Virus record (IMG/VR): IMGVR_UViG_3300049053_000107
Coordinates: 1 to 55,210 of that record
Reading direction: 5' to 3' (one strand)
Source: a virus
Lineage: Duplodnaviria; Caudoviricetes
Length of the DNA: 55,210 nucleotides
A model generated the notes under the pieces. It searched no databases and was not told the DNA's origin. It worked only from the letters and a program-made list of their open reading frames with translations. The translations under genes were made by a program, and so were the position numbers. Within the stretch, counting starts at the first letter, position 1, and the number at the start of each line of letters is the position of its first letter. Positions 14,818 through 33,049 of this stretch are shown in pieces.

Positions 14818-17800
14818 TAATTAAATGAGTGTCTTTTATTTAAATAGGTGTTTAGCCCATTTTTATTTTCTTGTGATCTGCGATAGCCTTTTTCATCCCA
14901 ACTATTCCGTTCTACTGTTATGTTGCCAACCGTATCTTTCATTATACCGCGCATTTCATCTTTAGAAATGCCCTTGCGGTCAAAAGCTCTTACCAAATTG
15001 TTCACTGCTTCTTTTTGTTTTCCATCACTGATTTGCCTGGTGAGCGCTGAAGTTGCTTTATCAGCAATGTTGTTCTCGGCCCTTAAAGCATGGTCAATGA
15101 TGCGCTTACTTTCTTCATGCGTCCAAACACGTTCACCACCTTTCATATCCATAATCTGAGGCTCACGGGCTACATACATTCTACCGTTACGCTCAATTAA
15201 CTCAAAACCTGCTTCACCTACTAAAGCTTTACCTACAGGTGCAGACTTAGTACCTTTTGCAAACTTTGGTAAAGGACGACTAGCTACTAAAGCTGCCTGG
15301 AATGCACCTTGTGCCAGTGCATAAGCAGACCATGGCAAACCAAATGTCAATGGACTGGCTGCAACTGCTTTTATCACACCAATTGCTGTATTAATAGCTA
15401 TCTCAAATAAGGCCATTGTCTTTTCACGTTTGGCCTGTTTTGTTTTTTCAGCATTGATGCGTTTTTGATATTCTTTTTCGATTTTCTCACGAGCTGCAGC
15501 GTTGCTGCCTGCTATTTCCAATTCTTTATTACGGGCATTTTCTAATTGGCGAATCCGGTTATCACTGGCTATTTGCTGATTGTCGGCGAGAGTAGAAAAT
15601 AATTGGTCGCTTGCCTGTTGTGCATAATCAGCGATAAGATCAATTGTTTCTCTGCGGTGACGTGCAGTAAGTAAAGCCTGTTCATGTTCTATTTCCTGAA
15701 TGGCTTCAGTATTGCCTACATACAGGCGTTTAATTTTTTCCAGGTATTCCATTTCCTCACGATAACTAACATCTCTGCGATTACGCTCAATTTCCATTTT
15801 ACGGGCTTCAGCGTCTACGGTTGCTTCTACCACTCTGTCAGCTGCACCGCCTGCGTCTACCACACCGCGATCAGATATTTTAGTACTACGAGAAGAGAGT
15901 TTATCTACCGGCCCTCTTTCCCTGTTTTTTTCAAGGAATTTGGATATTTCAACTTCAGCTTCAATAATTTCTTTTTTCAAATTGGTAATACGTTCCTGGT
16001 CTGCATGCTTGCCAAGCTCCAATTCTTTTTCAATAGATTTTTCTAAGTAGGTAACAGTCAGCCAATACTTCTGTTCCTGAAACTCTTTTTCAGTAATTAT
16101 TTTATCAACACTTTTATCTTCAGCTAGTTTTATATCAAGTTCTGCTTCCGCTTTTAATAAATCTTGTGCTTTGCGGTTTGCGGCTATGCGTTCACGAAGT
16201 TTTTCTTCAGCGCTGTCCTTACTGTCTTTTTTATTGGCTTCACCTAAAGCCTTCATTTCTGCATTATGCTTTTGTGCATTATGCGCTTCCTCGTTATCTA
16301 AGACAAGGTGACGGCCTAAGTATTGTTTATAGATCCGTAATGCTTCAGCGTAGTCTTTTTCATCCTGCACATTTTTTGCACCGGTACTATTATCTGCGAT
16401 ATTTCTAGCAACAGTAACTGCAGCCCGTTTATCTGTTAAAGTTTCCCTACGTTGAGAACTGGTTTGAGATTGGAAATTATTAAAATCCTGTTCCTTCAAT
16501 TGAGCCTGTACGTTAGCCCTAGTATTACTACCATTGAATATTCCGATAAAACTTTTCCATGAAGGTGAATTGGTAAATACATTTAAGCTATCAAAGAAAG
16601 AAGCCATACCTCTTTTTACCTCAGTCCAAAAACTTACCATACCGCTTTTCTGTCCAAAACTTTGAAGGAAACGATTAAATGAGTTGGTTAACCTGTTCGT
16701 CTCATTGGTTAATTGCTGCGCATTCTCAATGGCTGATTTGCTGTATGTCTTATTTAAGATATCTGCAACTTTTGGTAAAATGTCAGAAGCAAGTACTTCA
16801 CCACTACGAAGCATTTTATCGAGTTTAGCAGTACTAACACCAGCAGCTTGCGCAAATATGTTGAACGCACCAGGTAAATGCTCACCTAATTGCTGTCTCA
16901 GTTCTTCAGCGCTTACCTTGCCTTTGGAAAGCATTTGCTGAATAGCACGTAAAGAGCTTTCAACTTGCACATTACTTAACTTCAGTGCGGTGCCTGCCTG
17001 TACAACTGCTTCAAATATTTTACGGGTTTGTGCACCTTCCAATGAAGTGCCTTTAGATGCGGCCGTAAGTGATTTGTAGCTAATAGCCAAATTGTTCAAA
17101 TCCTGACCGTACTTGTTTGCAATGCCTCTTAGAAACTCAATAGTTTCAGCAAGCTCCTGTTCGGTATCTACAACAGCACGTAAACCGGCTTCCATGTTCT
17201 GAAACTCAATATTGGCATTAATCACTTTATTAAATCCTGCAAGCAGTGTAGTAACAATTGCCAAAGGCCCGGCAATACCAAGTATCTGTGCACCTAATCC
17301 CGAAAAAGCCGATCTGTAATTACCTACACTCCTACCATAAGCCCCCATTGACGAATCAGCACGTTTCAATGCTTTATCCAGCGTTTCAATTTTATGCTGT
17401 AAGGCAACAGCTTCTTTATTTTGACGATTAATTGCACCAGTTGTAGCATTGAAAGCACCGGGCATAGCTTGCAAACGATTCTTAAGCTGTGTAAGCTCTA
17501 AAGACATTTGCTTATAAGAACCGCTTGTAGCATCCAGGTTCTTTTTAGTAACCCTTACCACTTCAGAAAAGCGGTGAACGTTGGGGATTACTTCGGCAAG
17601 GCGCTTATTAATCCGGTCAAGTTCCTGCCTGTAATTTGCATTTGACTTATCCAGATTATCATACTCTTTTTTAAGATTTTTTAGTTCCTGCTCCAACGCT
17701 TTTTGAGAAGCAGTAGTAGCATCCGTCACAACCCGTAAACCTGTCTCTGTGTCTCTTAATTTATTTTTACGGTCAATAATTTCATCTACGGCTCTTTTCA

Positions 17801-18023
17801 TTGCCTGAAGGACCACCGTAGCATTTACGTTACCTACATTAAACTTATTGAGAATTTCAACCGTTTTAAGAAGATCACTGTTGTATTCTTGTTGCCTGCG
17901 AGAGAGTTCTTTAAGCACCCCGCCAACGGTGGCAGCAAACTCTTTGGTTTGCTTCCTTGCCTCTCCCATGTCTCTAAAGAAACTAGGAAAATCGAATAAC
18001 TCTGTATGCTGAACTGCTGACAA
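14817..18023 (-). CDS. Tape measure protein
   Basis: AIQQMLSKGKVSAEELRQQLGEHLPGA tape-measure domain; long helical protein; FAKG..VGEAG.E C-terminal motif; TTG start. Confidence 0.9.
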   Translation of the reverse strand: MSAVQHTELFDFPSFFRDMGEARKQTKEFAATVGGVLKELSRRQQEYNSDLLKTVEILNKFNVGNVNATVVLQAMKRAVDEIIDRKNKLRDTETGLRVVTDATTASQKALEQELKNLKKEYDNLDKSNANYRQELDRINKRLAEVIPNVHRFSEVVRVTKKNLDATSGSYKQMSLELTQLKNRLQAMPGAFNATTGAINRQNKEAVALQHKIETLDKALKRADSSMGAYGRSVGNYRSAFSGLGAQILGIAGPLAIVTTLLAGFNKVINANIEFQNMEAGLRAVVDTEQELAETIEFLRGIANKYGQDLNNLAISYKSLTAASKGTSLEGAQTRKIFEAVVQAGTALKLSNVQVESSLRAIQQMLSKGKVSAEELRQQLGEHLPGAFNIFAQAAGVSTAKLDKMLRSGEVLASDILPKVADILNKTYSKSAIENAQQLTNETNRLTNSFNRFLQSFGQKSGMVSFWTEVKRGMASFFDSLNVFTNSPSWKSFIGIFNGSNTRANVQAQLKEQDFNNFQSQTSSQRRETLTDKRAAVTVARNIADNSTGAKNVQDEKDYAEALRIYKQYLGRHLVLDNEEAHNAQKHNAEMKALGEANKKDSKDSAEEKLRERIAANRKAQDLLKAEAELDIKLAEDKSVDKIITEKEFQEQKYWLTVTYLEKSIEKELELGKHADQERITNLKKEIIEAEVEISKFLEKNRERGPVDKLSSRSTKISDRGVVDAGGAADRVVEATVDAEARKMEIERNRRDVSYREEMEYLEKIKRLYVGNTEAIQEIEHEQALLTARHRRETIDLIADYAQQASDQLFSTLADNQQIASDNRIRQLENARNKELEIAGSNAAAREKIEKEYQKRINAEKTKQAKREKTMALFEIAINTAIGVIKAVAASPLTFGLPWSAYALAQGAFQAALVASRPLPKFAKGTKSAPVGKALVGEAGFELIERNGRMYVAREPQIMDMKGGERVWTHEESKRIIDHALRAENNIADKATSALTRQISDGKQKEAVNNLVRAFDRKGISKDEMRGIMKDTVGNITVERNSWDEKGYRRSQENKNGLNTYLNKRHSFN

Positions 18024-18058
18024 TACGAGACTGTTGAATTATTGAAACAATATGTATT

Positions 18059-18074
18059 CAACCGTCTCTGGTTG
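18059..18074 (-). promoter_or_regulatory. AGAGAC-loop hairpin in the tape-measure leader
   Basis: mRNA CAACC-AGAGAC-GGUUG; one of four copies. Confidence 0.6.
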
Positions 18075-18090
18075 GTGTGCTAAACGAAAA

Positions 18091-18107
18091 TACTAAAAAA
18101 CTTAGTA
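18091..18107. promoter_or_regulatory. Palindrome TACTAA-N5-TTAGTA (putative late-gene operator)
   Basis: Related copies at 28271, 32327 and 32606. Confidence 0.5.
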
Positions 18108-18119
18108 AACTAAAGCCTT

Positions 18120-18938
18120 TTAAAGCAAACATCTGTTCAAAGCGGCAAACTCCTGATCGTATAACTCAATTGTTCCTTTGCAGGTCTTGCCTCTTTGTTC
18201 TGTTCCTATCTGATATGCGGCTTTGGTAATGTGCTCCTTACCGTTTAAATACCTTTCCAAATGCTCAAACATCACAATTGCAGCCCAGTGATCTGGTAAA
18301 GAAAAATAATAGCTTTCCACTTTTATCACTTTATCCAAATCAGTTTTAAACTCCCTGCGCTTGCCAGTGGTTTGTTCCTTGTAAACTTCCCGATCTATTT
18401 CTGGTTGTTCGTCAATCACGTTCATGTTTAGTCGGAACTCCTGGTAAAAATCTTCCAGCTCTGTAGCTCCGTATAGAATACCGTAAAAGTATCTGTCATG
18501 CCTGAACTTAACATGCATCGATTTATTAGCATAGTTCTCAGTCCAAACCTCAAAATGGTTAGAAGTAAGAACTACGGTATCGTCAGAAACCTTGCGTAAT
18601 CTGAAATGGTACAAGCCTTTTGCCACATCGGGGAAAAGAAATGTTGTAAATATATTATAGTTGGAACCGGCGATTACATGCTGCTCTAATGTAGCTGCGT
18701 TATCTTGTGCAACTGCACCAGTTCGGCTATTGATTAAGGTCAGCTTTAAATCAGCAAACGTACCTAAAGCCAGGCCATCAGGAACGTTTAAATAAAAAGC
18801 CATTGTTTCATCAGGCACAGCTACAATTGCTGTAGTACACCTATCGGGGTCTTGTACGTAACCATGTGGCAGATCACCGTAACCGGCAACACCTACCCCG
18901 TTATCCCACCGTAAAAAATTATTTTCATTTACTAACAT
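18120..18938 (-). CDS. Virion/tail structural protein (hypothetical)
   Basis: 272 aa, between tail chaperones and tape measure. Confidence 0.5.
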   Translation of the reverse strand: MLVNENNFLRWDNGVGVAGYGDLPHGYVQDPDRCTTAIVAVPDETMAFYLNVPDGLALGTFADLKLTLINSRTGAVAQDNAATLEQHVIAGSNYNIFTTFLFPDVAKGLYHFRLRKVSDDTVVLTSNHFEVWTENYANKSMHVKFRHDRYFYGILYGATELEDFYQEFRLNMNVIDEQPEIDREVYKEQTTGKRREFKTDLDKVIKVESYYFSLPDHWAAIVMFEHLERYLNGKEHITKAAYQIGTEQRGKTCKGTIELYDQEFAALNRCLL

Positions 18939-19228
18939 TATTGTGATTTATAGCGTTCTCTGTAAAATTCCAATCTGCTATAATATTCCCATTCACTCAG
19001 TTCTTTTGGACTAGGGATACCGTTTTCCTGAAGCACAGCAACCGTTTTTTCAAACTCACTTTCCAACTGCATAACTATATTATCCTCTTTATACGGATCA
19101 AAACGAAACGGCTTTTGTTGCAGTACAAAGAACTTTTGTAAATCAGTCAGTTCTTCCAGATGCGTCTTATTTTTTGGCTCCACTTCAAGCATTGCTTTCA
19201 CAACAATGTACCTTCTCAGCTTTTCCAA
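18938..19228 (-). CDS. Tail assembly chaperone gpGT-like extension, reached by -1 frameshift
   Basis: Its frame is open back to the A9 slippery run at 19286-19294. Confidence 0.7.
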   Translation of the reverse strand: MEKLRRYIVVKAMLEVEPKNKTHLEELTDLQKFFVLQQKPFRFDPYKEDNIVMQLESEFEKTVAVLQENGIPSPKELSEWEYYSRLEFYRERYKSQ

Positions 19229-19233
19229 ACTAC

Positions 19234-19692
19234 CTATATCGTCTGAAAAGATTCCAGGGAAATAAAGTCTTCGCTCAGTATCAAGTTTTTTTTTACTTCA
19301 TCCAGTGTTTCTGCAATTTCACCTGACGTTAATCCTTTTTCACTTAACTCACCTACCAATTTTTGCAATCCCTCCTGCGTATAATCATTGGTCTGTTTAC
19401 CATTTACTGATTTAATCAGGCACCCAAAAGATGCACTTTGGTAATCCATTTCGCTAACAGTGGAAAACAAGGCAAACCGTAAATTCTTTGCCTCTTCCAA
19501 AGCCGGACCTTTCTCATCATTGCTAACAAAAAGCATAAGTTTCTGCAGCCTGTCGTCGATTGCCTGAATGGTGTTACCTATACCTGATTCCTGCAATAAA
19601 AACAAATGCAGTTTTTTTGAAACAGCAATGGGCAATTCTTTTATTGAGCTGTATAGTTCTACTTCCGTATCTGCAATTCTGATTACTTTCAT
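19234..19692 (-). CDS. Tail assembly chaperone (gpG-like)
   Basis: Contains GTA AAA AAA AAC near its 3' end; upstream of tape measure. Confidence 0.7.
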   Translation of the reverse strand: MKVIRIADTEVELYSSIKELPIAVSKKLHLFLLQESGIGNTIQAIDDRLQKLMLFVSNDEKGPALEEAKNLRFALFSTVSEMDYQSASFGCLIKSVNGKQTNDYTQEGLQKLVGELSEKGLTSGEIAETLDEVKKNLILSEDFISLESFQTI

Positions 19693-19952
19693 TTTCTCTG
19701 AATGGTTATAAGTATATTAATTATCCCTGCAACTGTAAGCGGTATTAAAAGCCAATGTGCACCGTAAAGCCATAAAACGTAATACAAAAAACTAACTGGT
19801 ATGGATAACCAAAACGATAAACAAAGGAAACAACCGCCTTCAGGCATCCATGTAGCGCGGGAAAACTCATAGTAATCCAGCCAACCCCATTTGTCAAAAC
19901 ATTGAAGCAGGGTTATCGTTACACCTAATATGGTAATTACTGCTTCTAACAT
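19689..19952 (-). CDS. Small membrane protein with CxxCxSFW motif (DUF1360-like)
   Basis: GCFLCLSFW plus hydrophobic segments. Confidence 0.5.
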   Translation of the reverse strand: MLEAVITILGVTITLLQCFDKWGWLDYYEFSRATWMPEGGCFLCLSFWLSIPVSFLYYVLWLYGAHWLLIPLTVAGIINILITIQRK

Positions 19953-20563
19953 TCTTCGTAATAACCTAGTGTTATATCGAAACGCATCCCAAAAAAAGGA
20001 TGCATTAAATACGGGTTTTTCACATCATCTATCGTGTATCGTGCATATTTTGCTTCATTGATCAAACCATCAAATACCTGTTCTACCCGTTCATCAAAAT
20101 ACTGAATGATGTTTTTTACATACTGATTGCCTTTCAAAATAACTTCCACGTCATGCTTCAGTTCTTCGGTATAGATATAGGTTTTAGCAGGGTCAATTTT
20201 AACTAAGTCGCCCCATATTATTACTGACACCTGGCGCTCTTTGGCATTTTCTCCTGCAGGGTTAAACACTTCACCTACCCAAAATTCCCGGTCACGTACT
20301 GCAAAAAAAGCCATAGATTGGAAACTATCATTCGGTAGTACGTTTATGTACTCCGCCATTTTTGTAGTCGGGTCAATGCCGGCAAAGCATTTTGGTATGC
20401 GGATTAAATTACCTTGACCGTCCTGCTCTTTATGTTCCCATGCCCGGCCAAAGCATTTTTCCAGCCATGGCAATTCTGCGAGCTCTTCTTGCAAACTTTG
20501 TATGGCAGCGTCCAGCCCTACAGGATTTGTAATTGTCGGTATGGGAGGATTGCTATAACTCAT
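19946..20563 (-). CDS. Tail terminator/completion protein candidate
   Basis: Position in neck cluster and size; no diagnostic motif. Confidence 0.45.
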   Translation of the reverse strand: MSYSNPPIPTITNPVGLDAAIQSLQEELAELPWLEKCFGRAWEHKEQDGQGNLIRIPKCFAGIDPTTKMAEYINVLPNDSFQSMAFFAVRDREFWVGEVFNPAGENAKERQVSVIIWGDLVKIDPAKTYIYTEELKHDVEVILKGNQYVKNIIQYFDERVEQVFDGLINEAKYARYTIDDVKNPYLMHPFFGMRFDITLGYYEEC

Positions 20564-21000
20564 CTTACACCTATTGATTGTCTGAATTGTTGAATTATAT
20601 CAGGCCTGATTGCTGCTACCATTAAAGGAATGTTTTGCTTTTTAACACCTAGAGGTTCACCTCCTGTTCTTCTTTTTACATAAGCTCGTAATGTCGCGTT
20701 TTTCCAATCTCTACTATTAATTTCTGTTTTTTCAGCATCAATTATTAAATATCTGGCTTCTCTAAAAGCTCCCGTATTTTTTAAATCTATTGGTTCATGC
20801 CTTCCTTTATAAGCTGCATACCAATTACTGTAAACGCCTAAATTCTGACCGGTTGCATCCTCGCCTTCATCCAACTGCTTTGCACTTAGCTCCAATATTT
20901 CATCTGTGTTTTTTACAATAGCTTCCTGCAATGCCGATAACGGCTGAAACTTTTCCAGCCTGCTCATAAACAAATCTTCTATCCTTGCCAGGTTAGCCAT
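20560..21000 (-). CDS. Neck/tail-completion protein (HK97 gp10-like)
   Basis: PIDLKNTGAF motif; position. Confidence 0.5.
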   Translation of the reverse strand: MANLARIEDLFMSRLEKFQPLSALQEAIVKNTDEILELSAKQLDEGEDATGQNLGVYSNWYAAYKGRHEPIDLKNTGAFREARYLIIDAEKTEINSRDWKNATLRAYVKRRTGGEPLGVKKQNIPLMVAAIRPDIIQQFRQSIGVR

Positions 21001-21295
21001 TTGCTGCTTGTTTATTTTGATGCTGTGCTACTGCGTTTATGTATGCTCCAACACCTGCTTTGCCATCGCTGTTATACAGCTTTTTCATTTGGCGATAATG
21101 GTTAAGCGGAAAAGCTTGCTTTTGCATTGCTCTATACTTGGCCGAACCCATAACAGGTTGCCCCTGCACTTCTCTTACACCTTTTTCAATTAACTCTTTA
21201 CCGGAAACTTTAACGCCAACCGTTATGTTTTGCTCCATAGCAGGCATTTCCCTAGCAATCCTGCGCATGGCTTTTAATTTTAATTTTTTACCCAT
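20993..21295 (-). CDS. Hypothetical basic protein
   Basis: ATG at 21295 overlaps the upstream stop (TAATG). Confidence 0.5.
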   Translation of the reverse strand: MGKKLKLKAMRRIAREMPAMEQNITVGVKVSGKELIEKGVREVQGQPVMGSAKYRAMQKQAFPLNHYRQMKKLYNSDGKAGVGAYINAVAQHQNKQAANG

Positions 21296-22596
21296 TATCT
21301 GAAAATTGATTTTACTCTTATTTGCTGACTGCGATTGTCGCATTTAAGGCACACATCGCTTAACCCGGAAAGATCAAATGATAGCGCTTTACGTGCAGCT
21401 TTCAACTCATTTACGGCCCCCATTTGCCCGTTTTCTGCGTCGTCAAGAGCTATTGCGGCCAAACCAGCTAATTTCTGTTTTAGCTGGTTATCTCTTACAC
21501 TATAGGCCATTTCATAAAGCAGATCGACTTTAATTTGTTTTGCCAGGGCATCGGCCAAAATTGACTTACTGCGCACAAGCACACCTGTTACATCACAGTG
21601 TATCGTTAATTGCAGGTTCAACCCATAAGTCACATTATCCGTATAAATTTCTTTGTCTTCATCCCAAAGACTGTTATCACCGGGTAAGTCAACCGCATTC
21701 ACGTAAAAAGGTTGAATGCTTATGTACTTACTCCATTTAGAGTAAAGATTTGCATTTACTACTTTCTCAGTACAGCTACCGCAATTGCTACTACCTGAAA
21801 AGGAAATTTCTTTTTTAATGGCGTTGCCAGTTAATTGGTCTTCATAGTAAACCAATCGGTAACTACCACCGCTTAAATCGTCGTTCAGTAAGGAAAGTAT
21901 TTCTTGCGTAATACTGTGCCACTGAAACTGTATGCTACGGGTATGGTTTAAAGCAAAAGTTTGTATCGGTTGATCGCTGCTAGTATGGTACAAATAAATG
22001 TTTACAGGGTTTTGCACCGTGTCCAGTTGCAAACCAATATGCGATAAAATCGCAACAGTGTCTTTATGTTTGAGTGAAATTTTATATCCTACTACCCTTC
22101 CGGACTTAGCAACGCGGCCTGTGATATTGCCCGTCCCTTCATAAAGTCTGCTATCGGATAAAAGAGTTTTAGCAGCTTCGTTCAGTTTTTTTTCTGTGAA
22201 AAGCTGACCAAATAGTTTTATACTTGCCGTGTCATACACACGTCTCAAATAAGCAGATAGAAGATTCGTTTCAACCCACCAATCGGCTTCAGTAACCTCT
22301 TTGTTTAAATTGGTATTTTGCAAACTCTGATAAATAACATCTTCTGCAACTTTCTTTACAATGTCACCTTTCTTATAAGTGAACGTATTAACCCATTCAC
22401 GCGGTACTATTGCACTGAATTGTTCAGCAACCACTAACAAATTTTCATAAGTAAGTAGAGGATGCAGATTATTTACATAAATACCAGAAGTACTTACCAA
22501 AAGACTGCTATCCACTACCGGATATCCGGAAATGTAATTGCTCTCAAATCCTACCAAGCCTCTTAATGCTGTTTGTATTAAAGTTGGGTTGTACAT
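21295..22596 (-). CDS. Head-tail adaptor/structural protein candidate
   Basis: First large gene after the capsid operon terminator. Confidence 0.5.
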   Translation of the reverse strand: MYNPTLIQTALRGLVGFESNYISGYPVVDSSLLVSTSGIYVNNLHPLLTYENLLVVAEQFSAIVPREWVNTFTYKKGDIVKKVAEDVIYQSLQNTNLNKEVTEADWWVETNLLSAYLRRVYDTASIKLFGQLFTEKKLNEAAKTLLSDSRLYEGTGNITGRVAKSGRVVGYKISLKHKDTVAILSHIGLQLDTVQNPVNIYLYHTSSDQPIQTFALNHTRSIQFQWHSITQEILSLLNDDLSGGSYRLVYYEDQLTGNAIKKEISFSGSSNCGSCTEKVVNANLYSKWSKYISIQPFYVNAVDLPGDNSLWDEDKEIYTDNVTYGLNLQLTIHCDVTGVLVRSKSILADALAKQIKVDLLYEMAYSVRDNQLKQKLAGLAAIALDDAENGQMGAVNELKAARKALSFDLSGLSDVCLKCDNRSQQIRVKSIFR

Positions 22597-22608
22597 GCAT
22601 TTGAAATT

Positions 22609-22643
22609 AAAAACCCCTGTCGCCGTATGACAGGACAGGGGTT
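22609..22643 (-). terminator. Rho-independent terminator after the capsid operon
   Basis: AACCCCTGTC-N12-GACAGGGGTT stem followed by a T run on the minus strand. Confidence 0.7.
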
Positions 22644-22672
22644 GCTAACCTATTAAATCAAATTATTGGCCT

Positions 22673-23083
22673 TTACCGTCGAATAAGCACCGTTCCCGTT
22701 GGGGATAGATTCACAGTGCCGCTTGTCGTGACTGTCGCTCTGTAGTAATTGTATGTACTTGGTGCGACAGCAAACGTAGCAACTTGTGATGTGACATTCG
22801 TTAAAGTAAACGTACTGGTGCCAGGTACAGTTCCATAATTTGTACCATCGTGACTACCTTCCAATATTACCGTTCCTGCGGCTGTTCCTGTATTACGAGT
22901 TAACAGCACTGCAAAACTTATAGAAGAGGCTTTACCAGTAATAGTTTTAGTAGCGTAGCCCACATCTGTATTTACCAAACTATCATCGGCTGCGCTGACA
23001 GTAAGCGTTTGTACCTGGGCTTTCGCATCCGGCAAAAAAGCCGTCAGTAAAAAGATGCTTAATAAAAAAACTATGAATTTCAT
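22673..23083 (-). CDS. Signal-peptide-bearing beta-rich protein at the capsid decoration locus
   Basis: MKFIVFLLSIFLLTAFLPDAKA|Q; immediately downstream of the major capsid gene. Confidence 0.6.
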   Translation of the reverse strand: MKFIVFLLSIFLLTAFLPDAKAQVQTLTVSAADDSLVNTDVGYATKTITGKASSISFAVLLTRNTGTAAGTVILEGSHDGTNYGTVPGTSTFTLTNVTSQVATFAVAPSTYNYYRATVTTSGTVNLSPTGTVLIRR

Positions 23084-23139
23084 TTTATAAAAATTGACTT
23101 GTGAGTAAATGATAAGGCGGATTAAAAACGTCCAGTCTA

Positions 23140-24192
23140 TTAAGCTTCAGCTAACAGTTCCAATTTCACAATTGGCTTGCTGGTATCTGAGCTGTATGCG
23201 TGTACGAAAAAGAAATCAGCTGCAAACTGGTATTTAGTACCATAAGTTCTTTCGAACCCTGCACCGTATGTACCAGTTAAGTCTTCGCACACATCACTTT
23301 CCTGTACGTCCCAACGAATACCCATGATCGGATCTGTTTGCAAATACGATTTAAGGTTATCGCTTGTTCTGCGGTTCACTGCATCGCTGTCATTTGCAGT
23401 AAATACACCGATCGAACCATTTTGCACCAGGTAATGCGTTTCGGCTACTGCAGGATCAGTGTCATTTTCAATCCGGTTAGAAGTGTAGTGCCTCATACCA
23501 GTAGCACTTGGCAAATCGCCTTCTAATACACCTCTCATATCCTCATTGTTGTACTTGCCCATTGCTTCATACTCCAACATCAATTCGCGGCTTTCCGTGC
23601 TGGCAATGTTCAAAAGCACACCATTCAAGTCATTTCTTGCAGCAATAGAAGGCACGTAGTAGTACAAACGGTTTCTTTTATCATACGTAAGCGTATAACC
23701 GCCTGCTGAAGCAGTTAAACCAGGAAGACCAACAGTTGCATTCACGGCACTTTTATTGGTTTCCAATTGTGCTGCTGCATAAGTGTCCAGATTCACGAGA
23801 ACACTGCGCATGCCGTTCATCACGCCATTTGCGTATTGCTGTTCCAGGGAAATAAGATTGTTATCAGATACTTTCGGATAAACAGAAATTTCAAAACCAC
23901 GGGTGATTTTGCTAATGGTTGGTTTAGCAGATACCGGATTGCTACCAGTGATAGCGCAGGCTCTTGCCGTAATAACCGTTAGGGTCTGTTTAGTAAGTAC
24001 CGGGAAATACAAAGGCACTGCATTTGCATTTGATTTATTGCTTTCCACTTCTTCTTTTGGGAGAAGCAAACGTGCCATATCGAGATACGCTTTAAAAGCG
24101 CCATATACTGAAAATCTGCCTTCAAAAGCAGTGAATTGCCTGCCAGCCCGTATGATCGCTTCGGTTCTGGCGGTGGCTGATAGTTGGGCCAT
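23140..24192 (-). CDS. Major capsid protein
   Basis: 350 aa, follows the scaffold-like gene; position and size. Confidence 0.7.
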   Translation of the reverse strand: MAQLSATARTEAIIRAGRQFTAFEGRFSVYGAFKAYLDMARLLLPKEEVESNKSNANAVPLYFPVLTKQTLTVITARACAITGSNPVSAKPTISKITRGFEISVYPKVSDNNLISLEQQYANGVMNGMRSVLVNLDTYAAAQLETNKSAVNATVGLPGLTASAGGYTLTYDKRNRLYYYVPSIAARNDLNGVLLNIASTESRELMLEYEAMGKYNNEDMRGVLEGDLPSATGMRHYTSNRIENDTDPAVAETHYLVQNGSIGVFTANDSDAVNRRTSDNLKSYLQTDPIMGIRWDVQESDVCEDLTGTYGAGFERTYGTKYQFAADFFFVHAYSSDTSKPIVKLELLAEA

Positions 24193-24230
24193 TTTTAATG
24201 AGTTTTTTAATTAAATAAAAATTGATGTAA

Positions 24231-24249
24231 GAGGTCAGTCTCTTGCCTC
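24231..24249 (-). promoter_or_regulatory. AGAGAC-loop hairpin in the capsid gene leader
   Basis: mRNA GAGGCA-AGAGAC-UGACCUC with one bulged A. Confidence 0.6.
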
Positions 24250-24295
24250 ATTTTTATCTACCCTCATCTTTGGCTCTTGATGTGGAATAAATAAT

Positions 24296-25186
24296 TTATA
24301 TCGCTATGCCTTGTTCTTTACAAAGCTTTTCGAATTGTACTCTGTACTTTTCATCGTCTACTTCAGGATCAAAGCCAGTTGCTTTCAGATGGTCGTGAAC
24401 TTGTTGCCTGGTGGTAAAGGCCCCACCTGCTACACCATTACTGCCACCTGTGCCGGTACCCGTTCCTGTTACTGTATGCTGCGATGGCGTGAACCATGAA
24501 GCATAGTTTTCAGAAATAATGTCGCCGGCAGCTTTTGGCTTACCGTCCTTGGTGCTCATAAGCGGCTTGTCACCTTCATAAAAGATAATATTGCCTTCAC
24601 TATCTTTTTTGGCTTCGTAGCTGCTTAAAAATCCCTGTTTGATAAGAGCTTTTTGCTTGTTTATGTACTGTTGCTTCTCTGCATCAGTTTTCAAATGGAT
24701 GGGCACCGCAATGTTTACTCTATTTAGTTCCGCATCCACTTGCCAGGCAAGTTCTTTATTGAAAATCTCTTGGTCTTTTTTGCTCAGAGTTTGGGTAAAC
24801 TCATTTTCCTTAGTTGTAATTAGGTTTTCCAGTTCTTGCACCCTTGCTTTTGTGGCAGCATCGCCGCCTTTAGCTGCACTTGTCTCGGATAAAGCCCTTT
24901 TTACAAACTCAGTTGTTTTCTCATGCGGACCTTTCTTAAGTCCGGTTAGAGTTTCTAACTCTCCGTCAATTTCATCCATCTTCACACGAAACTCCTGTTT
25001 CAACTTACCCGGTAACAAAACACTTAACTGGTTGTCCAGGTATTGTTGATCCTGCTCCTTCGTGCGAATAACCACATTTTCAGGTGGCGCCTGCATGAAA
25101 TCATTTGTGAAAGAGCTAATCAAACCTTTTTTAAGTTCCGGATCGGTTTTCGCCGCTTCCTGAACTTGTTCTAATGTAACGTTCAT
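24296..25186 (-). CDS. Capsid scaffolding protein candidate
   Basis: Charged coiled coil with a GTGTGTGG linker near the C-terminus; directly upstream of MCP. Confidence 0.65.
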   Translation of the reverse strand: MNVTLEQVQEAAKTDPELKKGLISSFTNDFMQAPPENVVIRTKEQDQQYLDNQLSVLLPGKLKQEFRVKMDEIDGELETLTGLKKGPHEKTTEFVKRALSETSAAKGGDAATKARVQELENLITTKENEFTQTLSKKDQEIFNKELAWQVDAELNRVNIAVPIHLKTDAEKQQYINKQKALIKQGFLSSYEAKKDSEGNIIFYEGDKPLMSTKDGKPKAAGDIISENYASWFTPSQHTVTGTGTGTGGSNGVAGGAFTTRQQVHDHLKATGFDPEVDDEKYRVQFEKLCKEQGIAI

Positions 25187-25197
25187 ATATTAATTGG

Positions 25198-25217
25198 TTA
25201 GTAAGTCTCTTTACTAA
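25198..25217 (-). promoter_or_regulatory. AGAGAC-loop hairpin in the scaffold gene leader
   Basis: mRNA UUAGUAA-AGAGAC-UUACUAA, perfect 7-bp stem. Confidence 0.65.
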
Positions 25218-25717
25218 GCGCCTTGCAGTACTTCAGTTTTTATTTTCGATTCAGTGAAAAAAGTATTGCCTTTGCTGTCTTCTCTGTTCAAACGATCCCA
25301 TGCGTTTTTAGAATAAAATTGCAGGTTCATAGTGTTAGGCACTACGATCATTTCACCATTGAACACGTCCAGGTTATCCTGCACTACTACAACTTTATTT
25401 TTCGCGTTATGGGGAATGAAATGTTGTCTGCCTTTGCTGTCAGTAACGAACTTACCTTTTTCATCTTTCTTTACTTCAGGCTCAATTGCTGCGGCTATTG
25501 GTGTAGGTGAGTTAGCCATTATCTGATCAATCACTTTTTCCCGTTCCATTTCAGGACCTGTCTCAGTGGCAAACACAATTTTCCAACGCTCATCTAACTC
25601 TGCATCACTCAGACTTTCCAGTTCTTCCCTTTTTAGTTGTGCTGGTGTTTTTTCCTGCTGTACTGGTGGTTGATTCTGTGGTGACTGGCTGTTCCTGTTC
25701 GCGTTCCTGTTTGACAT
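25214..25717 (-). CDS. Hypothetical head-morphogenesis-region protein
   Basis: Between portal and scaffold; overlaps the portal 3' end. Confidence 0.55.
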   Translation of the reverse strand: MSNRNANRNSQSPQNQPPVQQEKTPAQLKREELESLSDAELDERWKIVFATETGPEMEREKVIDQIMANSPTPIAAAIEPEVKKDEKGKFVTDSKGRQHFIPHNAKNKVVVVQDNLDVFNGEMIVVPNTMNLQFYSKNAWDRLNREDSKGNTFFTESKIKTEVLQGA

Positions 25718-27419
25718 ATTCTAAAAGTTTTTTAGTAATTACATCTACTTTTTTTTCAACGGTAATCGACATACCCCATTGAACTATATCGCCGTTTGTC
25801 AATTCAAATCTACTAATAAATTTAGCAAAATCTAATTTCAAAAGAAATTTTTCCGGATATTTCTGGTCTAACTGGTATGCCAGGCACTCGGCAAAGGACA
25901 ATTCACTAAAGGGTTCCAGGTAATCCAATAACTGCGCACGTTTCAGTTCATAGGGGTTATTGCGGTACTCCGTTTGTACTAATTGCTTCTTTTTCTGAGC
26001 TGTCAGATAGCCCGACACCCCTACTTCTTTAAAAAGTTTATACTGATCGGCAATGTCTTTTGCTGTATATAGTAAAAATTGTTCGCCGTAATTCACAACA
26101 CAGTTCACATAGTAATCCCCATACATCAAACGCCCCATTGTGTCAACAAAGAACTTCTGTGTGGCTTCAAAATCACGTTTCAATCGTAACAGTACATTTC
26201 TTTTACCTTCTACTGTTACCTGAACCTGTTTTTGATTCACTGCTTCTTTGGTCACTGTCTCATCTGCACTACCTACACAATTAGCATAAACTTCCCATTC
26301 CAGGAAGTCAATTTTCTTTTGTATGTAGTCAAGTGAAGGAATGTGTGGGGCGATTATTTGTACAGCGTCCGGTAATTCCGGATCTCCTTCTTTTGGATAA
26401 GGCCGTGTTACCACGGTACCAGGGCCAGAGAATTGACTTGCTTTTTTTGCGCATGCAGGACAGTCATAAGTAGACGACTTACCTTCCTGATTCATGAAAG
26501 TAACAAGTCCTTCACTACAGCTATTTCCCTCCTTATCCACGTATTCGCATTCTTCTTCCGGCATTACCATTATAGGAAACGGACCGTAAGTTTCATAAAT
26601 ACGTGCTGCTATTTTAAAAAACAATAACCAATCCAGATCGCCTAAATTATCGGAGGCTTGTACCTTTCGCACAATCGCTAAATCATCATCGTTGTAGAGT
26701 GGCGTTTTAGGAAGGAATGTAGCCGGGGTAAAACCAAGGTTGTGAAATGATTCAGATAAAAGACGAAATTCTCTTTCACCATTTTGGCCGGGTTCTTCTG
26801 TTTCTTCCAGTATGCGATAACTCACATCGTCGATAGCAATGTATTTTTTGACAGCTATCTTAAAAATAAAAAGTCCTATGCGCTCATTGCCGGTAAAGTC
26901 ACGTTGCTTAATTACTTCAACAAAATTGCTTACGTCCACTTTGTAGTAATACGGCCGTGGGCGCAGTGTATCTTGCACAGACGGCAAGTCAATTACAAAA
27001 ATGCAATTGGGTTGTGTCTGGTATGCACGAAAAGCAACTGTTTTAAAATACTTGGTAATATCGATCTCCTGCAGGTATTTACGATATTCAACCCGCATGG
27101 TATCATCCAACATTTCTACATCAAAATACGAATCCTGTGCTGTGAACATTTTCTCATATTCATCAAACACAGAATTGCATAAAGCCGTTGTAGCAACAGG
27201 AAAAGCAAACGTATTGCGAAACGCAGTTACTTTATCCGGAGGTAGTAGCTTGCTAACCCATTGCATGAACTCATGAAAGTAGGGGCTAACCTTACCTTCC
27301 CGGTCAACCGCTTTTGTATGAAACTTTATCCTGTTTTCATGAAGTTGGGCTTCACTGATTGCTAAACTACTGTCCGGTGTTCGGATTCTGTCCTTTACTT
27401 GTTGGAGAGATAACACCAT
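25605..27419 (-). CDS. Portal protein
   Basis: About 600 aa, between terL and scaffold/MCP; internal CPAC insert; start probably the ATG at 27419. Confidence 0.7.
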   Translation of the reverse strand: MVLSLQQVKDRIRTPDSSLAISEAQLHENRIKFHTKAVDREGKVSPYFHEFMQWVSKLLPPDKVTAFRNTFAFPVATTALCNSVFDEYEKMFTAQDSYFDVEMLDDTMRVEYRKYLQEIDITKYFKTVAFRAYQTQPNCIFVIDLPSVQDTLRPRPYYYKVDVSNFVEVIKQRDFTGNERIGLFIFKIAVKKYIAIDDVSYRILEETEEPGQNGEREFRLLSESFHNLGFTPATFLPKTPLYNDDDLAIVRKVQASDNLGDLDWLLFFKIAARIYETYGPFPIMVMPEEECEYVDKEGNSCSEGLVTFMNQEGKSSTYDCPACAKKASQFSGPGTVVTRPYPKEGDPELPDAVQIIAPHIPSLDYIQKKIDFLEWEVYANCVGSADETVTKEAVNQKQVQVTVEGKRNVLLRLKRDFEATQKFFVDTMGRLMYGDYYVNCVVNYGEQFLLYTAKDIADQYKLFKEVGVSGYLTAQKKKQLVQTEYRNNPYELKRAQLLDYLEPFSELSFAECLAYQLDQKYPEKFLLKLDFAKFISRFELTNGDIVQWGMSITVEKKVDVITKKLLEYVKQEREQEQPVTTESTTSTAGKNTSTTKKGRTGKSE

Positions 27420-27576
27420 TTTCGTACTTGAAAGGTTGTTTATCAGCAATTACCCATTTGTCTTTATCGCGAACTTTACCTTTTTCCTGAATTTTAAACA
27501 GCTTTTCTGCTGCGGGAATGGTCATGTCTTTCACTTGATCCCCATGAGAGACTTTTATTTTTGTTTGCTCTGCCAT
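27367..27576 (-). CDS. Hypothetical small protein
   Basis: Starts 1 nt after the upstream stop. Confidence 0.55.
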   Translation of the reverse strand: MAEQTKIKVSHGDQVKDMTIPAAEKLFKIQEKGKVRDKDKWVIADKQPFKYENGVISPTSKGQNPNTGQ

Positions 27577-27577
27577 G

Positions 27578-28192
27578 TTAAATAGTTAAAAGGTTAGTGC
27601 CTGTATTTGTAGCCTGTACAATCAGATCATCAGCCCAACCCGGAGGCAGGTCAAATGATACACGGGCAATGTTGTCTTTATTGAAACCTTCTGTACCAGG
27701 ATCACCAGCCATGATGTTGTACACAGGAATACCAGAACCATCGGAGTTTGAAATAACCTGGCCGAAACGATTAACCATGTACATCCAAATGTTTGTATCG
27801 CCAACTGATTCATTTGCCAGTTTACGAAGTGCGTTTAGTTGTGCAGGTGTCCAGTTCTGTGCATCAAGAGTAACCGGCGCAAATCCGCGTCCGTTAAGGC
27901 GAGGCACACCATCGAGAGTTGTATTATCATTGCCGCCCTCTTTCAAAATTTCACCAGGAGGTATCACCACGTTTGGCATACGTGGCGTTTTTACAATCTT
28001 GGTATCATCCGTTTCTGCTAAAAGCGGTGTCCAGGTTGCTACTGCCTTGATTGTTGTTGCTGTGAAGGAAGAAACTGCTTGAATGCGCTGAAAAAAGAAA
28101 CGCTGAAGCTGATCAAAGCGAAACGCACATTCGCTATCGGGTATGTCTGTCAAAAGCTCGTCAGGAGGACAGGTAAAAAGAGCGTCCGGCAT
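27578..28192 (-). CDS. Major virion protein, probable tail tube protein
   Basis: CP..L.DIP..C..F.Q.Q..FQR N-terminus recalled from Bacteroidota siphovirus structural proteins; about 200 aa; no other tube candidate. Confidence 0.5.
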   Translation of the reverse strand: MPDALFTCPPDELLTDIPDSECAFRFDQLQRFFFQRIQAVSSFTATTIKAVATWTPLLAETDDTKIVKTPRMPNVVIPPGEILKEGGNDNTTLDGVPRLNGRGFAPVTLDAQNWTPAQLNALRKLANESVGDTNIWMYMVNRFGQVISNSDGSGIPVYNIMAGDPGTEGFNKDNIARVSFDLPPGWADDLIVQATNTGTNLLTI

Positions 28193-28227
28193 TTTTTAAA
28201 AGTTTAAATGTTTAGGAATTGCTTTTT

Positions 28228-28241
28228 AACCGTCTCTGGCT
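28228..28241 (-). promoter_or_regulatory. AGAGAC-loop hairpin in the leader of 27578..28192
   Basis: mRNA AGCC-AGAGAC-GGUU with one G-U pair. Confidence 0.55.
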
Positions 28242-28355
28242 TGGCGTAAAAATAGAAAAATAATTTGAAATGCTAAGTTTTTTAGTAAATTCGGTTTCTT
28301 CTTTCAGTAAATAGCATGGCACAAAATCGTTAAAACCGAAATTCGGCCTCTGTTT

Positions 28356-28820
28356 TTACAGAGGCTTTTTTATTTCAAGTTTACCTGAGTTATTAACGAT
28401 TACTTCTGCGCTTGTTTCATCTACAATAGCAGGAGTGACTAAAACTTTGCCCGCAGCATCAAAAGGAATTTTGCGTATAGGTTGAGAGACGAGCATAATA
28501 TGTTGTCTACGCATCATTTCATGGTTGATTAGGGCGAGTAAGCGCAAACGTTTTGCTTCTCTACGAGAGTATTTTTTCTTTCTGAGTATGCGGGGTATTT
28601 TTCTTTCGTACCGCGCTAATTCACCAAAGTCTTTAACGGTTTGTTGAGCGAACGAAACGGTTTGATCAAAAATAGCAAGAGCCTTCTGTAACTTAGGGTG
28701 GTTTGCAGCAAGTTCTTTTAGTTCATTTACTACAATCTTATAGCTAGGTTCAAAACTTTTTTGAAACTGCTCAAACTTCTCTTTACTCATGTTCACGTAG
28801 ATACTGTAAGTAGGCTCCAT
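28356..28820 (-). CDS. Hypothetical basic protein
   Basis: 154-aa ORF following terL. Confidence 0.5.
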   Translation of the reverse strand: MEPTYSIYVNMSKEKFEQFQKSFEPSYKIVVNELKELAANHPKLQKALAIFDQTVSFAQQTVKDFGELARYERKIPRILRKKKYSRREAKRLRLLALINHEMMRRQHIMLVSQPIRKIPFDAAGKVLVTPAIVDETSAEVIVNNSGKLEIKKPL

Positions 28821-28829
28821 GGTATAAAT

Positions 28830-30287
28830 TTAATTCTTTCGCTTGTATTTATAGCCAGCATGCTTATTAATAAATTCCTCTCTTACCGCACTGGTTAAAT
28901 TATCTACGTGTTCATCATGCTTGCCATTAGGGAAAGAGCCAAGTTGATCTAAAAACGCATCATTCCACGGGCCATAAATTAATTTCACTTTACCTGCTTC
29001 ACAAATTGCAGCAATACCGTTAGCTCTTGTTTCCTTATCGTCTTTCGGCGGTTTATCCTGCAATATGTTCAATCCAGGTATTTGCTTTAACTCCTGAACT
29101 ACAGTAATACCGCTTGCCTTTGGTTCCACTTTCATTGTACTGCGTGGGCTATGGCCATGGCGTTTTGCATACAGTGGCAAATACTTCTTTAGCTCAGGAA
29201 ACTCCAAATACTGTTCTTCAGCATTTACGATATACATTATCCCACCTTCTATGAAGTATGCAAATAACCCGCTTGGGTCATTAGTTTGTTTCTTAGTGTA
29301 GGCTGTATCAATCTTAAACTTTATTGTTGCATTACGTGGCACTTCACGCTTTACCACTTCAAACCATGCTTTCTTCAGTATACCCCCCTCAGCAGGTGAA
29401 GGACGTTGGTCTAACTGCGCTGCGGCACCGTAAGTACCTAAGTCTTTTCGCAACTTGGTAATTGCTTCCGGACCTAACCGGATAGGATCTAACAAACCAT
29501 TTTCATAAAACTGTTTCCACTCAATAGGTCGTACATTATCCTGCACTTCAGCAGGAAGGCAGATGTGTAATATCCGTCCTCCCTTGGTAAGCAAATGGCC
29601 GGTATTGTCCTCTTCATGCAAACGCTGTTGCACTGCGATCATTGTAGCAACAAGCTTATCTACCTTGCGGGTAGATAGCGTTTCATCACCATACTTATTT
29701 GCCTCAATACGGGCAAGCTCACTTGCTGCTTTCTGTGGGTTAGTGCTATCATCTACAATGATCTGGTGTGCATGTATACCGGTTACAGCCGCACCGGTAG
29801 ATGTAGCATAACGCTCACCTCCTACTTTGTTTTTAAAATGGCCTTTAGCTTCATTGTCCTTATCGATCTTTACATGAGGGAAATACTTCTGATACTTCTC
29901 ACTCCAAAATATCTTACGGGATTTATCTGCTAAGTCAAGTGAAATGTCGCCGGCGTATGATGAGCAAATAAAACGCTGTGTGGGGTCAATTGCCCAACAC
30001 CACATTGGGTACATGATGCTAACGATAGTAGATTTTGTTGAACCAGGTGGAACGTTAATAATGATCCAATCAAATTCAGCAGGCAAACGCTGCTTTACTC
30101 TTTTACCCACACCTTCCAACACTTCACATATCTTCTCAATGTGCCAGTTCCATACAGGCGTCTCATTGATCAACGTACTCCAAAACTCTTTTACAAAAAA
30201 GAAAAATTTATCCTGGCACAGATCAGCAGCTAACATATCCTGATCAATTTCCAGAGAGAGTAAATCTTCAAGAGTTAGTTCGGGCAT
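28830..30287 (-). CDS. terL: Terminase large subunit
   Basis: NVPPGSTKST Walker A, IIVDD Walker B, QQRLHEED, KIDTAY and HDEHVD nuclease motifs. Confidence 0.92.
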   Translation of the reverse strand: MPELTLEDLLSLEIDQDMLAADLCQDKFFFFVKEFWSTLINETPVWNWHIEKICEVLEGVGKRVKQRLPAEFDWIIINVPPGSTKSTIVSIMYPMWCWAIDPTQRFICSSYAGDISLDLADKSRKIFWSEKYQKYFPHVKIDKDNEAKGHFKNKVGGERYATSTGAAVTGIHAHQIIVDDSTNPQKAASELARIEANKYGDETLSTRKVDKLVATMIAVQQRLHEEDNTGHLLTKGGRILHICLPAEVQDNVRPIEWKQFYENGLLDPIRLGPEAITKLRKDLGTYGAAAQLDQRPSPAEGGILKKAWFEVVKREVPRNATIKFKIDTAYTKKQTNDPSGLFAYFIEGGIMYIVNAEEQYLEFPELKKYLPLYAKRHGHSPRSTMKVEPKASGITVVQELKQIPGLNILQDKPPKDDKETRANGIAAICEAGKVKLIYGPWNDAFLDQLGSFPNGKHDEHVDNLTSAVREEFINKHAGYKYKRKN

Positions 30288-32996: not shown

Positions 32997-33049
32997 TCAT
33001 AAACTCTTTTGTCAATCAACAACATTTAAAAACCTCAAAATTTAATCAA

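Follow-up and report, generated by a model that had tools for sequence, protein, structure and literature searches.

The window analysed here is the complete 55,210-base virus record IMGVR_UViG_3300049053_000107 of IMG/VR, a soil phage in which almost every gene lies on the minus strand, and the element in question is a small hairpin with the loop AGAGAC that recurs in the leaders of its virion genes. The open reading frames (ORFs) and hairpins of the virion module are given below in sense order, with protein lengths in amino acids (aa) and stems in base pairs (bp).

28830..30287, minus strand: large terminase gene, the first of the virion module in sense order
28356..28820, minus strand: 154-aa ORF between the large terminase gene and the 204-aa gene, with no family match
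28228..28241, minus strand: hairpin a, AGCC-AGAGAC-GGUU, 4 bp including 2 G-U pairs, in the leader of the 204-aa MP2-like gene
27578..28192, minus strand: 204-aa virion gene (phrog_8193), homologue of 'major protein 2' (MP2) of Bacteroides phage B40-8
25605..27449, minus strand: portal gene, after the 204-aa gene
25214..25717, minus strand: 167-aa ORF between the portal gene and the scaffold-like gene
25198..25217, minus strand: hairpin b, UUAGUAA-AGAGAC-UUACUAA, 7 Watson-Crick bp, A/U-rich stem
24296..25186, minus strand: scaffold-like or capsid-associated gene (phrog_7970), ATG at 25186
24262..24285, minus strand: HP1, a fifth related hairpin, CCACAUC-AAGAGCCAAA-GAUGAGG, upstream of the capsid gene
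24231..24249, minus strand: hairpin c, GAGGCA-AGAGAC-UGaCCUC, 2 contiguous bp, or 6 bp with one A bulged
23140..24192, minus strand: major capsid protein gene (phrog_7231), ATG at 24192
18059..18074, minus strand: hairpin d, CAACC-AGAGAC-GGUUG, 5 bp, in the tape-measure leader
14817..18023, minus strand: tape measure protein gene, TTG start at 18023

Downstream of the capsid gene follow, in order, a 136-aa gene, a strong terminator, and a 433-aa gene with the tail genes. Hairpins a to d were found on the minus (sense) strand exactly where an earlier sequence-only reading had located them, and the distances from loop to start codon, which that reading had put at about 19–46 nucleotides (nt), were measured as 18–45 nt; HP1 was absent from its list. 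The loop of hairpin a ends 39 nt upstream of the ATG at 28192, that of hairpin c 45 nt upstream of the capsid ATG, and that of hairpin d 40 nt upstream of the TTG start. For hairpin b, the stem ends 11 nt and the loop 18 nt upstream of the scaffold-like ATG, and the 5' arm contains the TAG stop codon of the upstream ORF 25214..25717. Hairpins a and b are thermodynamically weak (-3.0 and -4.9 kcal/mol, no better than shuffles), which fits a structure needing a ligand, and at site c ViennaRNA favours a competing AAGAG/CUCUU pairing, which makes it the weakest of the four copies. The gene behind hairpin a had been called a putative tail tube gene; its product is a homologue of MP2 of B40-8, and public records annotate such homologues inconsistently, some as tail and some as head proteins. 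A further AGAGAC on the minus strand (17970–17975) lies directly before an in-frame ATG (17969) inside the tape-measure ORF, in a G-U-rich 8-bp hairpin; it is probably coding and coincidental, because the N-terminus upstream of it is conserved in a related locus, L008.

The bare hexamer is not enriched in the window, which holds 16 copies of AGAGAC versus 15.40 expected, a number reached by 47 of 100 shuffles. Fourteen copies lie on the sense strand, and four of them (sites a–d), all in intergenic gaps of the virion module, have flanking stems, while the remaining 12 copies of the window have flanking stems of 0–2 bp. The gaps that hold sites a–d cover 389 of the 55,210 nt, so that about 0.1 of the 14 sense copies would be expected there, and 4 were observed. 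AGAGAC hexaloops on a stem of at least 4 bp occurred three times in the window, against a mean of 0.225 and a maximum of 2 in 200 dinucleotide shuffles, a comparison with shuffled sequence of the kind that the sequence-only reading had named as a possible refutation. A blind search of all hexamers would not single out AGAGAC, since A-rich loops occur up to 7 times and the most frequent hexamer of a shuffle has 5.4 copies on average. Judged by sequence comparison, the decisive support is the conservation of the hairpins, with compensatory stem changes, at orthologous positions.

Relatives were sought in several ways. A megablast search of positions 17000–29000 against phages gave no match; capsid- and portal-based scans of IMG/VR gave only two contigs, while scanning metagenomes yielded 5 loci and scanning genomes a single locus. 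Exact AGAGAC hairpins were found in none of the relatives L001–L008, whose 16 AGAGAC copies have stems of 0–2 bp. This looked like a refutation; when the loop was relaxed to AGRGNC and the leaders of the relatives were searched, the orthologous leaders matched. Phages with 45–58% identical proteins have a hairpin at the corresponding positions, its stem altered in a compensating way and its loop AGGGAC, AGAGYC or AGGGGAC. The hairpin (T/A)CGCC-AGGGAC-GGCG(G/T), with the stem CGCC/GGCG in L010, lies 33–38 nt before the homologue of the 204-aa gene in L008, L009/L022 and L010/L023/L024, and GGGUG-AGAGCC-UACCC and GGGUG-AGAGUC-UACCC lie 45 nt before the capsid ATG in L009 and L010. Conservation upstream of orthologous genes, on which the sequence-only reading had staked its proposal, was also seen in L008, a prophage in a Chitinophagaceae metagenome-assembled genome (MAG), where AGGGAC precedes all four orthologous genes: besides the copy just described, one lies 17 nt before the scaffold ATG on a weak stem, another 51 nt before the capsid gene, and CAGGCC-AGGGAC-GGCUUG lies 35 nt before the tape-measure TTG, the N-terminus of the protein aligning with that of the window protein from residue 1. 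The tape-measure copy is kept solely in this nearest subclade, and no equivalent was found in L025, L026 or L037.

An alignment of 12 copies with six-nt loops from four phages, chosen partly for the presence of a stem, had 81.9% of its cells paired, compared with 45.7% in shuffles (0 of 500 reached the observed value) and 27.8–43.1% in slid controls, and all six pairs had changed on both sides. The flanks of these copies are not conserved. A covariance model built from them (R1) found its 12 training copies and no others below an E value of 0.5 in 143 kb. At the position of HP1, L004 has GGUCUG-CAGAGAAAAC-CAGACU and L008 has CCACAU-AGGGAC-AUGCGG; in the alignment of four HP1 sequences, 89.3% of cells were paired and 4 of 7 pairs had changed on both sides.

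A wider family was retrieved by alignment of the 204-aa MP2-like protein, which gave 63 IMG/VR loci with 22–58% identity and the same gene order (terminase, MP2-like protein, portal, scaffold, capsid), belonging to siphovirus-like phages of Bacteroidota. The loop in this family is 9 nt long, with the consensus AAAGGGUCA. Examples in MP2 leaders are GCGGC-AAAGGGUCA-GCCGU, GCGGU-CAAGGGUAA-ACCGU and GAGGC-AGAGGGUGA-GCCUC, and most loci have a perfect TAnnTTTG box, then 6–10 nt (up to 18), the MP2-leader hairpin, and the ATG about 30 nt farther on. As the first copy lies just downstream of a host-type promoter box, the transcript would start at or close to it. The scaffold copy, AAUUC-AAAGGGAAA-GAAUU, abuts the ATG in 27 of 28 distinct contexts and has a compensated variant, AAAUC/GAUUU, while the capsid-leader copy takes the forms CCGGGU-AAAGGGUCA-AUCCGG, CGGGU/ACCCG and GGGC/GCCC. 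In most loci the MP2 copies end 28–37 nt and the capsid copies 29–33 nt upstream of the ATG. Among 36 distinct copies with 9-nt loops, likewise selected in part by their stems, 84.3% of cells were paired versus 57.9% in shuffles (0 of 500), and the inner five pairs were formed in 83–100%. The intermediate forms GCC-AGGGGAC-GGC and GCCG-UAGGGGACAU-CGGC of L025 bridge both loop sizes, which indicates a conserved core of A-G-R-G followed by (A/U)(C/A) in loops of 6 to 10 nt. AGAGAC is thus invariant within this genome only, and the core of the family is A-G-R-G; the fixed loop asserted by the sequence-only reading holds for the window and gives way across phages.

A second covariance model, R2, built for the version with 9-nt loops, gave 96 matches at E ≤ 1 in 46 sources (785 kb), of which 95 were on the sense strand, typically three per phage. 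On whole genomes, G002 had 3 matches and G003 had 3 strong matches and 1 weak one. R2 gave no match in the window clade (window, L008, L022, L023 and L025) or in the B40-8-like loci L011, L028 and L029, as sampled. In a strict automatic count, 38 of 59 assessable loci had a hairpin ahead of the 204-aa homologue, and 24 of 43 had one ahead of the capsid gene; inspected by eye, 2 of these 38 were probably false calls, and 7 of the 21 misses carry excluded variants (3-bp stems, or loops such as UACGGGUC). The degenerate 19-mer GCGGYMAAGGGTMARCCGY occurred once each in 54 IMG/VR stretches, and in 42 of these a homologue of the 204-aa gene lies directly downstream; 2 others belong to the family by context, and 10 are chance occurrences in G+C-rich coding sequence. 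B40-8-like Bacteroides phages (L011 8875–8940; L028–L041) have a different capsid-leader hairpin, for example GGGGA-GCGA-UCCCC, with a GNRA tetraloop.

The element was also present in cultured phages when R2 was run on their whole records: Parabacteroides phage PDS1 had 3 strong matches in head genes and weaker ones, Elizabethkingia phage TCUEAP2 had 3 + 1, Alistipes phage AS73P1 had 5, and the Bacteroides phages BKO1-3 and C1_85S2P had 3 and 4, respectively. R2 gave 0 matches in BF503P1 and in Croceibacter phage P2559S, and a single match (E 0.68) in P2559Y, where variant copies are visible by eye. PDS1, AS73P1, C1_85S2P and TCUEAP2 carry a fourth copy, which stands some 90 nt downstream of a TAAATTTG box within a long, purine-rich leader. 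In PDS1 and C1_85S2P this copy is followed by a perfect AAGGAGG, beyond which GGAAC repeats abound in the leader. This terminase-operon leader (L088 6040–6200; L146; L147; L148) is very purine-rich throughout, with AAGGAGG (AAGAGG in TCUEAP2), and GGAAC-type words repeat after the hairpin in three of the four phages; the leader might be a multi-site platform for the same reader.

Several signals neighbour the hairpins, among them a box matching TAnnTTTG, reportedly the consensus of the Bacteroidota -7 promoter box as given by Bayley et al. in 2000.

28273..28285, strand not assigned: palindrome CTAA-N5-TTAG upstream of hairpin a, a probable DNA operator
28247..28254, minus strand: TATTTTTA, a 7/8 match to TAnnTTTG, 5 nt upstream of hairpin a
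18085..18105, minus strand: palindrome CTAAGTTTTTTAG (18093–18105) overlapping TATTTTCG (18085–18092), upstream of hairpin d
18021..18074, minus strand: long alternative hairpin (predicted) in which the UUG start is paired and the two arms and loop of hairpin d are taken up
11531, 18093, 25813, 28273, 32329, 32608, 43533, 45810 and 53350, window: 13-nt CTAA-N5-TTAG sites

TATTTTCG matches the -7 box at 7 of 8 positions and lies 10 nt upstream of hairpin d, and the L008 tape-measure leader has the order GCTAA-N5-TTAGC, a perfect TACTTTTG, 9 nt, and hairpin. The palindrome CTAA-N5-TTAG occurs 9 times in the window versus 1.57 expected (0 of 100 shuffles reach 9), including in the divergent 32.3–32.7 kb region; in relatives it is found upstream of the orthologous hairpins in L008 and L009 and also upstream of the gene before the large terminase. 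The sole conserved regulator-like gene encodes an Xre-type helix-turn-helix (HTH) protein (34845..35165), and CTAA-N5-TTAG is probably its operator; the HTH protein is more likely to read this DNA palindrome than the hairpin. A scan for sigma-70-type promoters found 46 versus 45.1 expected and is uninformative for Bacteroidota. The sole canonical TAnnTTTG box near the late region (31586–31593) precedes a 184-aa ORF (30952–31506, minus strand) with a match (E 9.3e-19) to the Thoeris inhibitor Tad3 of Pfam. The module is bounded by strong intrinsic terminators at 28345–28366, after the 154-aa ORF just upstream of site a, and at 22615–22635 (minus strand), after the 136-aa gene; the terminator behind the capsid block is kept in relatives.

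The long alternative hairpin at site d had a minimum free energy of -15.4 kcal/mol (z -4.0, 0 of 200 shuffles) or -17.5 kcal/mol (z -3.2, 1 of 200 shuffles), and an analogous fold pairing the UUG was predicted in the L008 tape-measure leader (z -1.97, 9 of 200 shuffles). In these models the small hairpin d and the start-burying fold are mutually exclusive. Such a switch was seen at site d alone, and not at sites a and b.

Other features of the record lie away from the hairpins. The ORFs at 1–2100 and 54110–55210 (both minus strand) run off the record ends in the same orientation, and they are probably parts of a single gene that crosses the ends of a genome either circular or circularly permuted. 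A repeated box, the reverse complement of gtttttacgattgacaaaaat, stands before three small plus-strand genes (gaps 32997–33197, 33567–33597 and 34338–34415) and is probably a shared early promoter or operator. An RT-17 RNA (Rfam RF03020) lies at 46769–46848 on the minus strand (41.6 bits versus a gathering score of 40.4), adjoined by a reverse-transcriptase ORF (45819..46769), and Pfam RVT_1 is among the proteome matches; together these look like a diversity-generating retroelement or a similar reverse-transcriptase cassette.

Our data show conserved, strand-specific hairpins in virion-gene leaders, which apparently form an undescribed control element, and the covarying hairpin family proposed by the sequence-only reading is borne out by its strand bias and by the compensatory changes at orthologous places. 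At the gathering threshold of Rfam 15 the single match in the window was the RT-17 RNA, and at E ≤ 5 no match overlapped a hairpin in positions 17900–28400 or in L045 6150–10450; covariance comparison with Rfam thus agrees that no family matches the hairpins, as had been supposed. No description of the element was found in the literature, as judged from titles and the openings of abstracts.

Covarying stems and the bias to the sense strand both argue for an RNA element. As a tentative leading explanation, to which we give slightly less than even weight, we propose from these comparisons that the hairpins are cis-acting RNA elements in the 5' leaders of late mRNAs for virion and packaging genes, the loop of which would be read in trans to set virion-protein output. 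The stem would be free to vary as long as it pairs, and the loop would keep a purine core, A-G-R-G-(A/U)-C here and AAAGGGUCA in the wider family. The reader would most likely be an RNA-binding protein, or possibly the ribosome itself, and its binding may set the translation efficiency, and perhaps the lifetime, of late mRNAs, coupling the output of the main virion proteins. A variable stem with a fixed loop in a phage leader is the design of boxB, of the Com site and of coat-protein operators. A role linked to translation is favoured by the constant distance of the hairpin from the start codon, either 0 nt or about 30 nt, by the A/U-rich single-stranded tract between hairpin and ATG, and by stems that are A/U-rich precisely where they are close to the ATG (site b, and the scaffold copy elsewhere), as would be expected of the scaffold copy if ribosomes must melt the hairpin. 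The proposal of the sequence-only reading that the element coordinates the stoichiometry of the major virion proteins fits three of the sites better than the fourth, since the tape measure gene is a low-copy gene whose hairpin occurs in the nearest subclade only.

Known translational controls offer partial parallels. In phage Mu, Com binds a hairpin in the mom leader and opens a stem that buries the start codon. The tape-measure leader may work in a similar way: the small hairpin is predicted to exclude the start-burying fold, so that a factor holding it closed would switch on translation from the UUG. Unlike com-mom, the switch is limited to one site in two phages, and no Com-like zinc-finger protein was found. 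CsrA/RsmA sites carry GGA in hairpin loops, with several sites per leader and one over the Shine-Dalgarno (SD) sequence; the hairpins here share purine loop motifs at varying distances from the start, one at the SD position, and the fourth copy lies beside a purine-repeat leader. They differ in that the core G-R-G is often followed by U and that AGAGAC, AAGGGUCA and most 9-nt loops (AAAGGGUCA, CAAGGGUAA) lack GGA, which is present in the loops AGGGAC and AAAGGGAAA; no CsrA-like gene was found in the phage. The hairpin loops of the E. coli rpsA leader also contain GGA motifs. The initiation region of rpsA, as described in an excerpt of PMC10931766, lacks an SD, combines a folded leader with AU-rich single strands, and depends on S1. 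The likeness lies in upstream hairpins followed by A/U-rich single-stranded RNA without an SD, in phages of a host phylum that starts translation without one; the loop motif and the organism differ, and the element here serves a multi-gene phage regulon instead of one autoregulated gene.

Several observations weigh against this explanation. Simple steric repression would need a shorter distance than the roughly 30 nt or more that separates most copies from the start, and the fourth copy lies about 150 nt before a terminase small-subunit-like gene that precedes the large terminase, so that no one spacing to the start codon holds throughout. The motif is missing from thirteen B40-8-like loci that belong to the same family, yet these phages make virions. 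The alternative fold at site d comes from two sequences. The selection of copies by their stems inflates the percentages of paired cells in alignments A6 and A10, although the syntenic placement and the model searches are free of that bias. Finally, Pfam and PHROG scans of 60 + 20 ORFs revealed no known RNA-binding, NusG, sigma or antiterminator domain. The basic proteins 28356..28820 and 20993..21343, which the sequence-only reading had put forward as readers, have no homologue in relatives that keep the hairpins, and they cannot be the general reader. Two other candidates were discarded. The 'RNA polymerase sigma factor' of PDS1 and C1_85S2P occupies the place expected of a terminase small subunit and has homologues in motif-less B40-8-like loci, and it therefore fails to account for the motif; ORF 25214..25717, which separates the portal and scaffold genes, also occurs in the motif-less group and has no family match.

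A function in RNA processing or 5' stabilization is unlikely, in our estimation, although part of the layout agrees with it. On this account an endonuclease cut or a transcript start lies just upstream of each hairpin, which forms a protective 5' stem-loop, and the conserved loop is what the nuclease or a protecting factor recognizes. The first copy, 6–10 nt after TAnnTTTG, would be only a few nt from the 5' terminus of the transcript, as in the E. coli ompA type of leader, in which a 5'-terminal stem-loop acts as a stabilizer. In L057, L063 and L082 a strong terminator-like hairpin with a U run precedes the capsid copy by about 20 nt, and no promoter box separates the two, a layout resembling a processed junction at which the upstream RNA ends, and the downstream RNA begins, with a hairpin; the terminators at 28345–28366 and 22615–22635 would bound such a unit. 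A purely protective 5' hairpin, however, needs no conserved loop, and the weak stems, internal copies and conserved loop sequence all depart from the ompA type; in addition, the scaffold copy abuts the ATG, and about 90 nt separate the fourth copy from the promoter box upstream of it.

Processive antitermination of the lambdoid nut kind, in which the nascent hairpin would load a phage (N-like) or host (NusG-paralogue-like) factor onto RNA polymerase so that it reads through terminators inside the late region, is quite unlikely. In the lambdoid phages the boxB hairpin is bound by N protein and its loop adopts a GNRA-like fold. The resemblance is that a short hairpin, variable in its stem and conserved in its purine-rich loop, stands near the promoter of a phage operon that has terminators farther downstream. 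The copies in the MP2 leader and the terminase-operon leader do lie between promoter and terminators within the late region, but the capsid copy comes after, not before, the nearest terminator-like hairpin. The window-clade loops A-GAGA-C and A-GGGA-C can be read as GNRA tetraloops (GAGA/GGGA) closed by an A-C mismatch, and L025 has a pentaloop GGGGA, but AGAGUC, AGAGCC and the 9-nt loops are not GNRA-like. No conserved boxA-like linear element accompanies the hairpins in the window clade, and the wider family has a AUUAACAAUUAAAAC-like downstream tract in MP2 and capsid leaders only. ORF 28356..28820 beside site a has an arginine/lysine-rich stretch, RKIPRILRKKKYSRREAKRLR; however, as noted, this ORF is not conserved in the relatives with hairpins, and neither an N family match nor a NusG/KOW or Q-like domain was found in the phage proteins. 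Further, the hairpins stand in late and not early operons, number up to four or five per genome, and keep a fixed spacing to start codons in several copies, one type abutting the ATG, which would be unexpected for nut sites.

A bolder idea is that the hairpins and the SD-like purine tracts together form a phage ribosome-recruitment signal, suited to a phylum whose ribosomes do not respond to SD sequences, and thus a small bacterial counterpart of a viral internal entry element. We regard this, too, as rather improbable from the sequences; if true, late mRNAs would gain privileged translation by binding a ribosomal component directly or by using ribosomes whose 16S tail is freed in infection.

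A simpler form of ribosome contact, in which the purine loops (AAAGGG, AAGGAG, AGAGA) would pair with the 16S 3' tail bearing the anti-SD and act as a standby or SD-like site, perhaps for bS21-poor ribosomes with a freed tail, seems very doubtful. AAGGAG loop variants occur in 2 of 28 distinct scaffold contexts, and the perfect AAGGAGG followed by GGAAC repeats after the fourth copy of PDS1 and C1_85S2P would suit it. The conserved letters, however, are G-R-G, then U/A-C/A-A, and not GGAGG, the MP2 and capsid copies are about 40 nt from the start codon, and AGAGAC could form no more than 5 pairs, one of them a G-U, with the tail and its presumed sequence beyond CCUCC. The GGG of the scaffold copy lies 8 nt from the ATG, and an excerpt of PMC7797042 places SD elements 7–9 nt upstream; against this, Bacteroidia ribosomes ignore the SD and the lone natural exception needs a 13-bp helix, according to excerpts of PMC7797042, PMC13000457 and PMC13000453. 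A 16S rRNA gene was not found in the host MAG.

Action as DNA, whether as a duplex protein site, a promoter part, or an ops/RfaH-like hairpin of the non-template strand in the transcription bubble, is hardly credible: sites a and d do adjoin promoter-like boxes and the palindrome, and hairpin evidence does not separate RNA from single-stranded DNA, but a reader of duplex DNA would not select stems that differ wholly between sites of one genome while keeping their pairing, the scaffold and capsid copies have no promoter box nearby, and the shared sense orientation fits RNA or non-template DNA only.

Other identities were rejected. The hairpins are not intrinsic terminators, because none of sites a–d is on the minus-strand terminator list, there is no U run, and the flanks are A-rich; the list holds the reverse complement of site c alone, on the non-coding strand. 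They are not SD elements, since the window loops end 18–45 nt from the starts and SD-like spacing occurs only for the scaffold copy of the wider family, nor REP- or MITE-like mobile repeats, since the stems are wholly different within one genome and relatives have one copy per orthologous leader. An antisense partner of the loop was dismissed because no conserved complementary sequence was found: on the sense strand of L042–L084, T[GT]ACCCTT occurs 4 times versus 74 for AAGGGT[AC]A, and in the contexts examined, those of the first 20 loci out of 43, the one copy present (in L056) lies outside the leaders; the window itself carries four GTCYCT, two of them inside ORFs. Use of the motif by the host was not supported in the one host genome examined, a 4.2-Mb MAG, in which CCAGRGACGG occurs 10 times (2 of them inside a prophage) versus 32 for the reversed control, and in which R1 and R2 revealed no regulon, part of that search having scored 150 first-look candidates.

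The high, coordinated expression of virion proteins in Bacteroidota phages without SD sequences is poorly understood, and the element offers a compact, sequence-defined handle on it. It spans phages from soil Chitinophagaceae types to cultured gut and aquatic phages, and its presence in the latter makes its function directly testable with existing phage-host pairs. It is a marker of late leaders in this phage group and a new RNA motif family, whose two covariance models could enter annotation libraries; if it proves to be an enhancer of expression, it would be a useful part for genetic tools in Bacteroidota.

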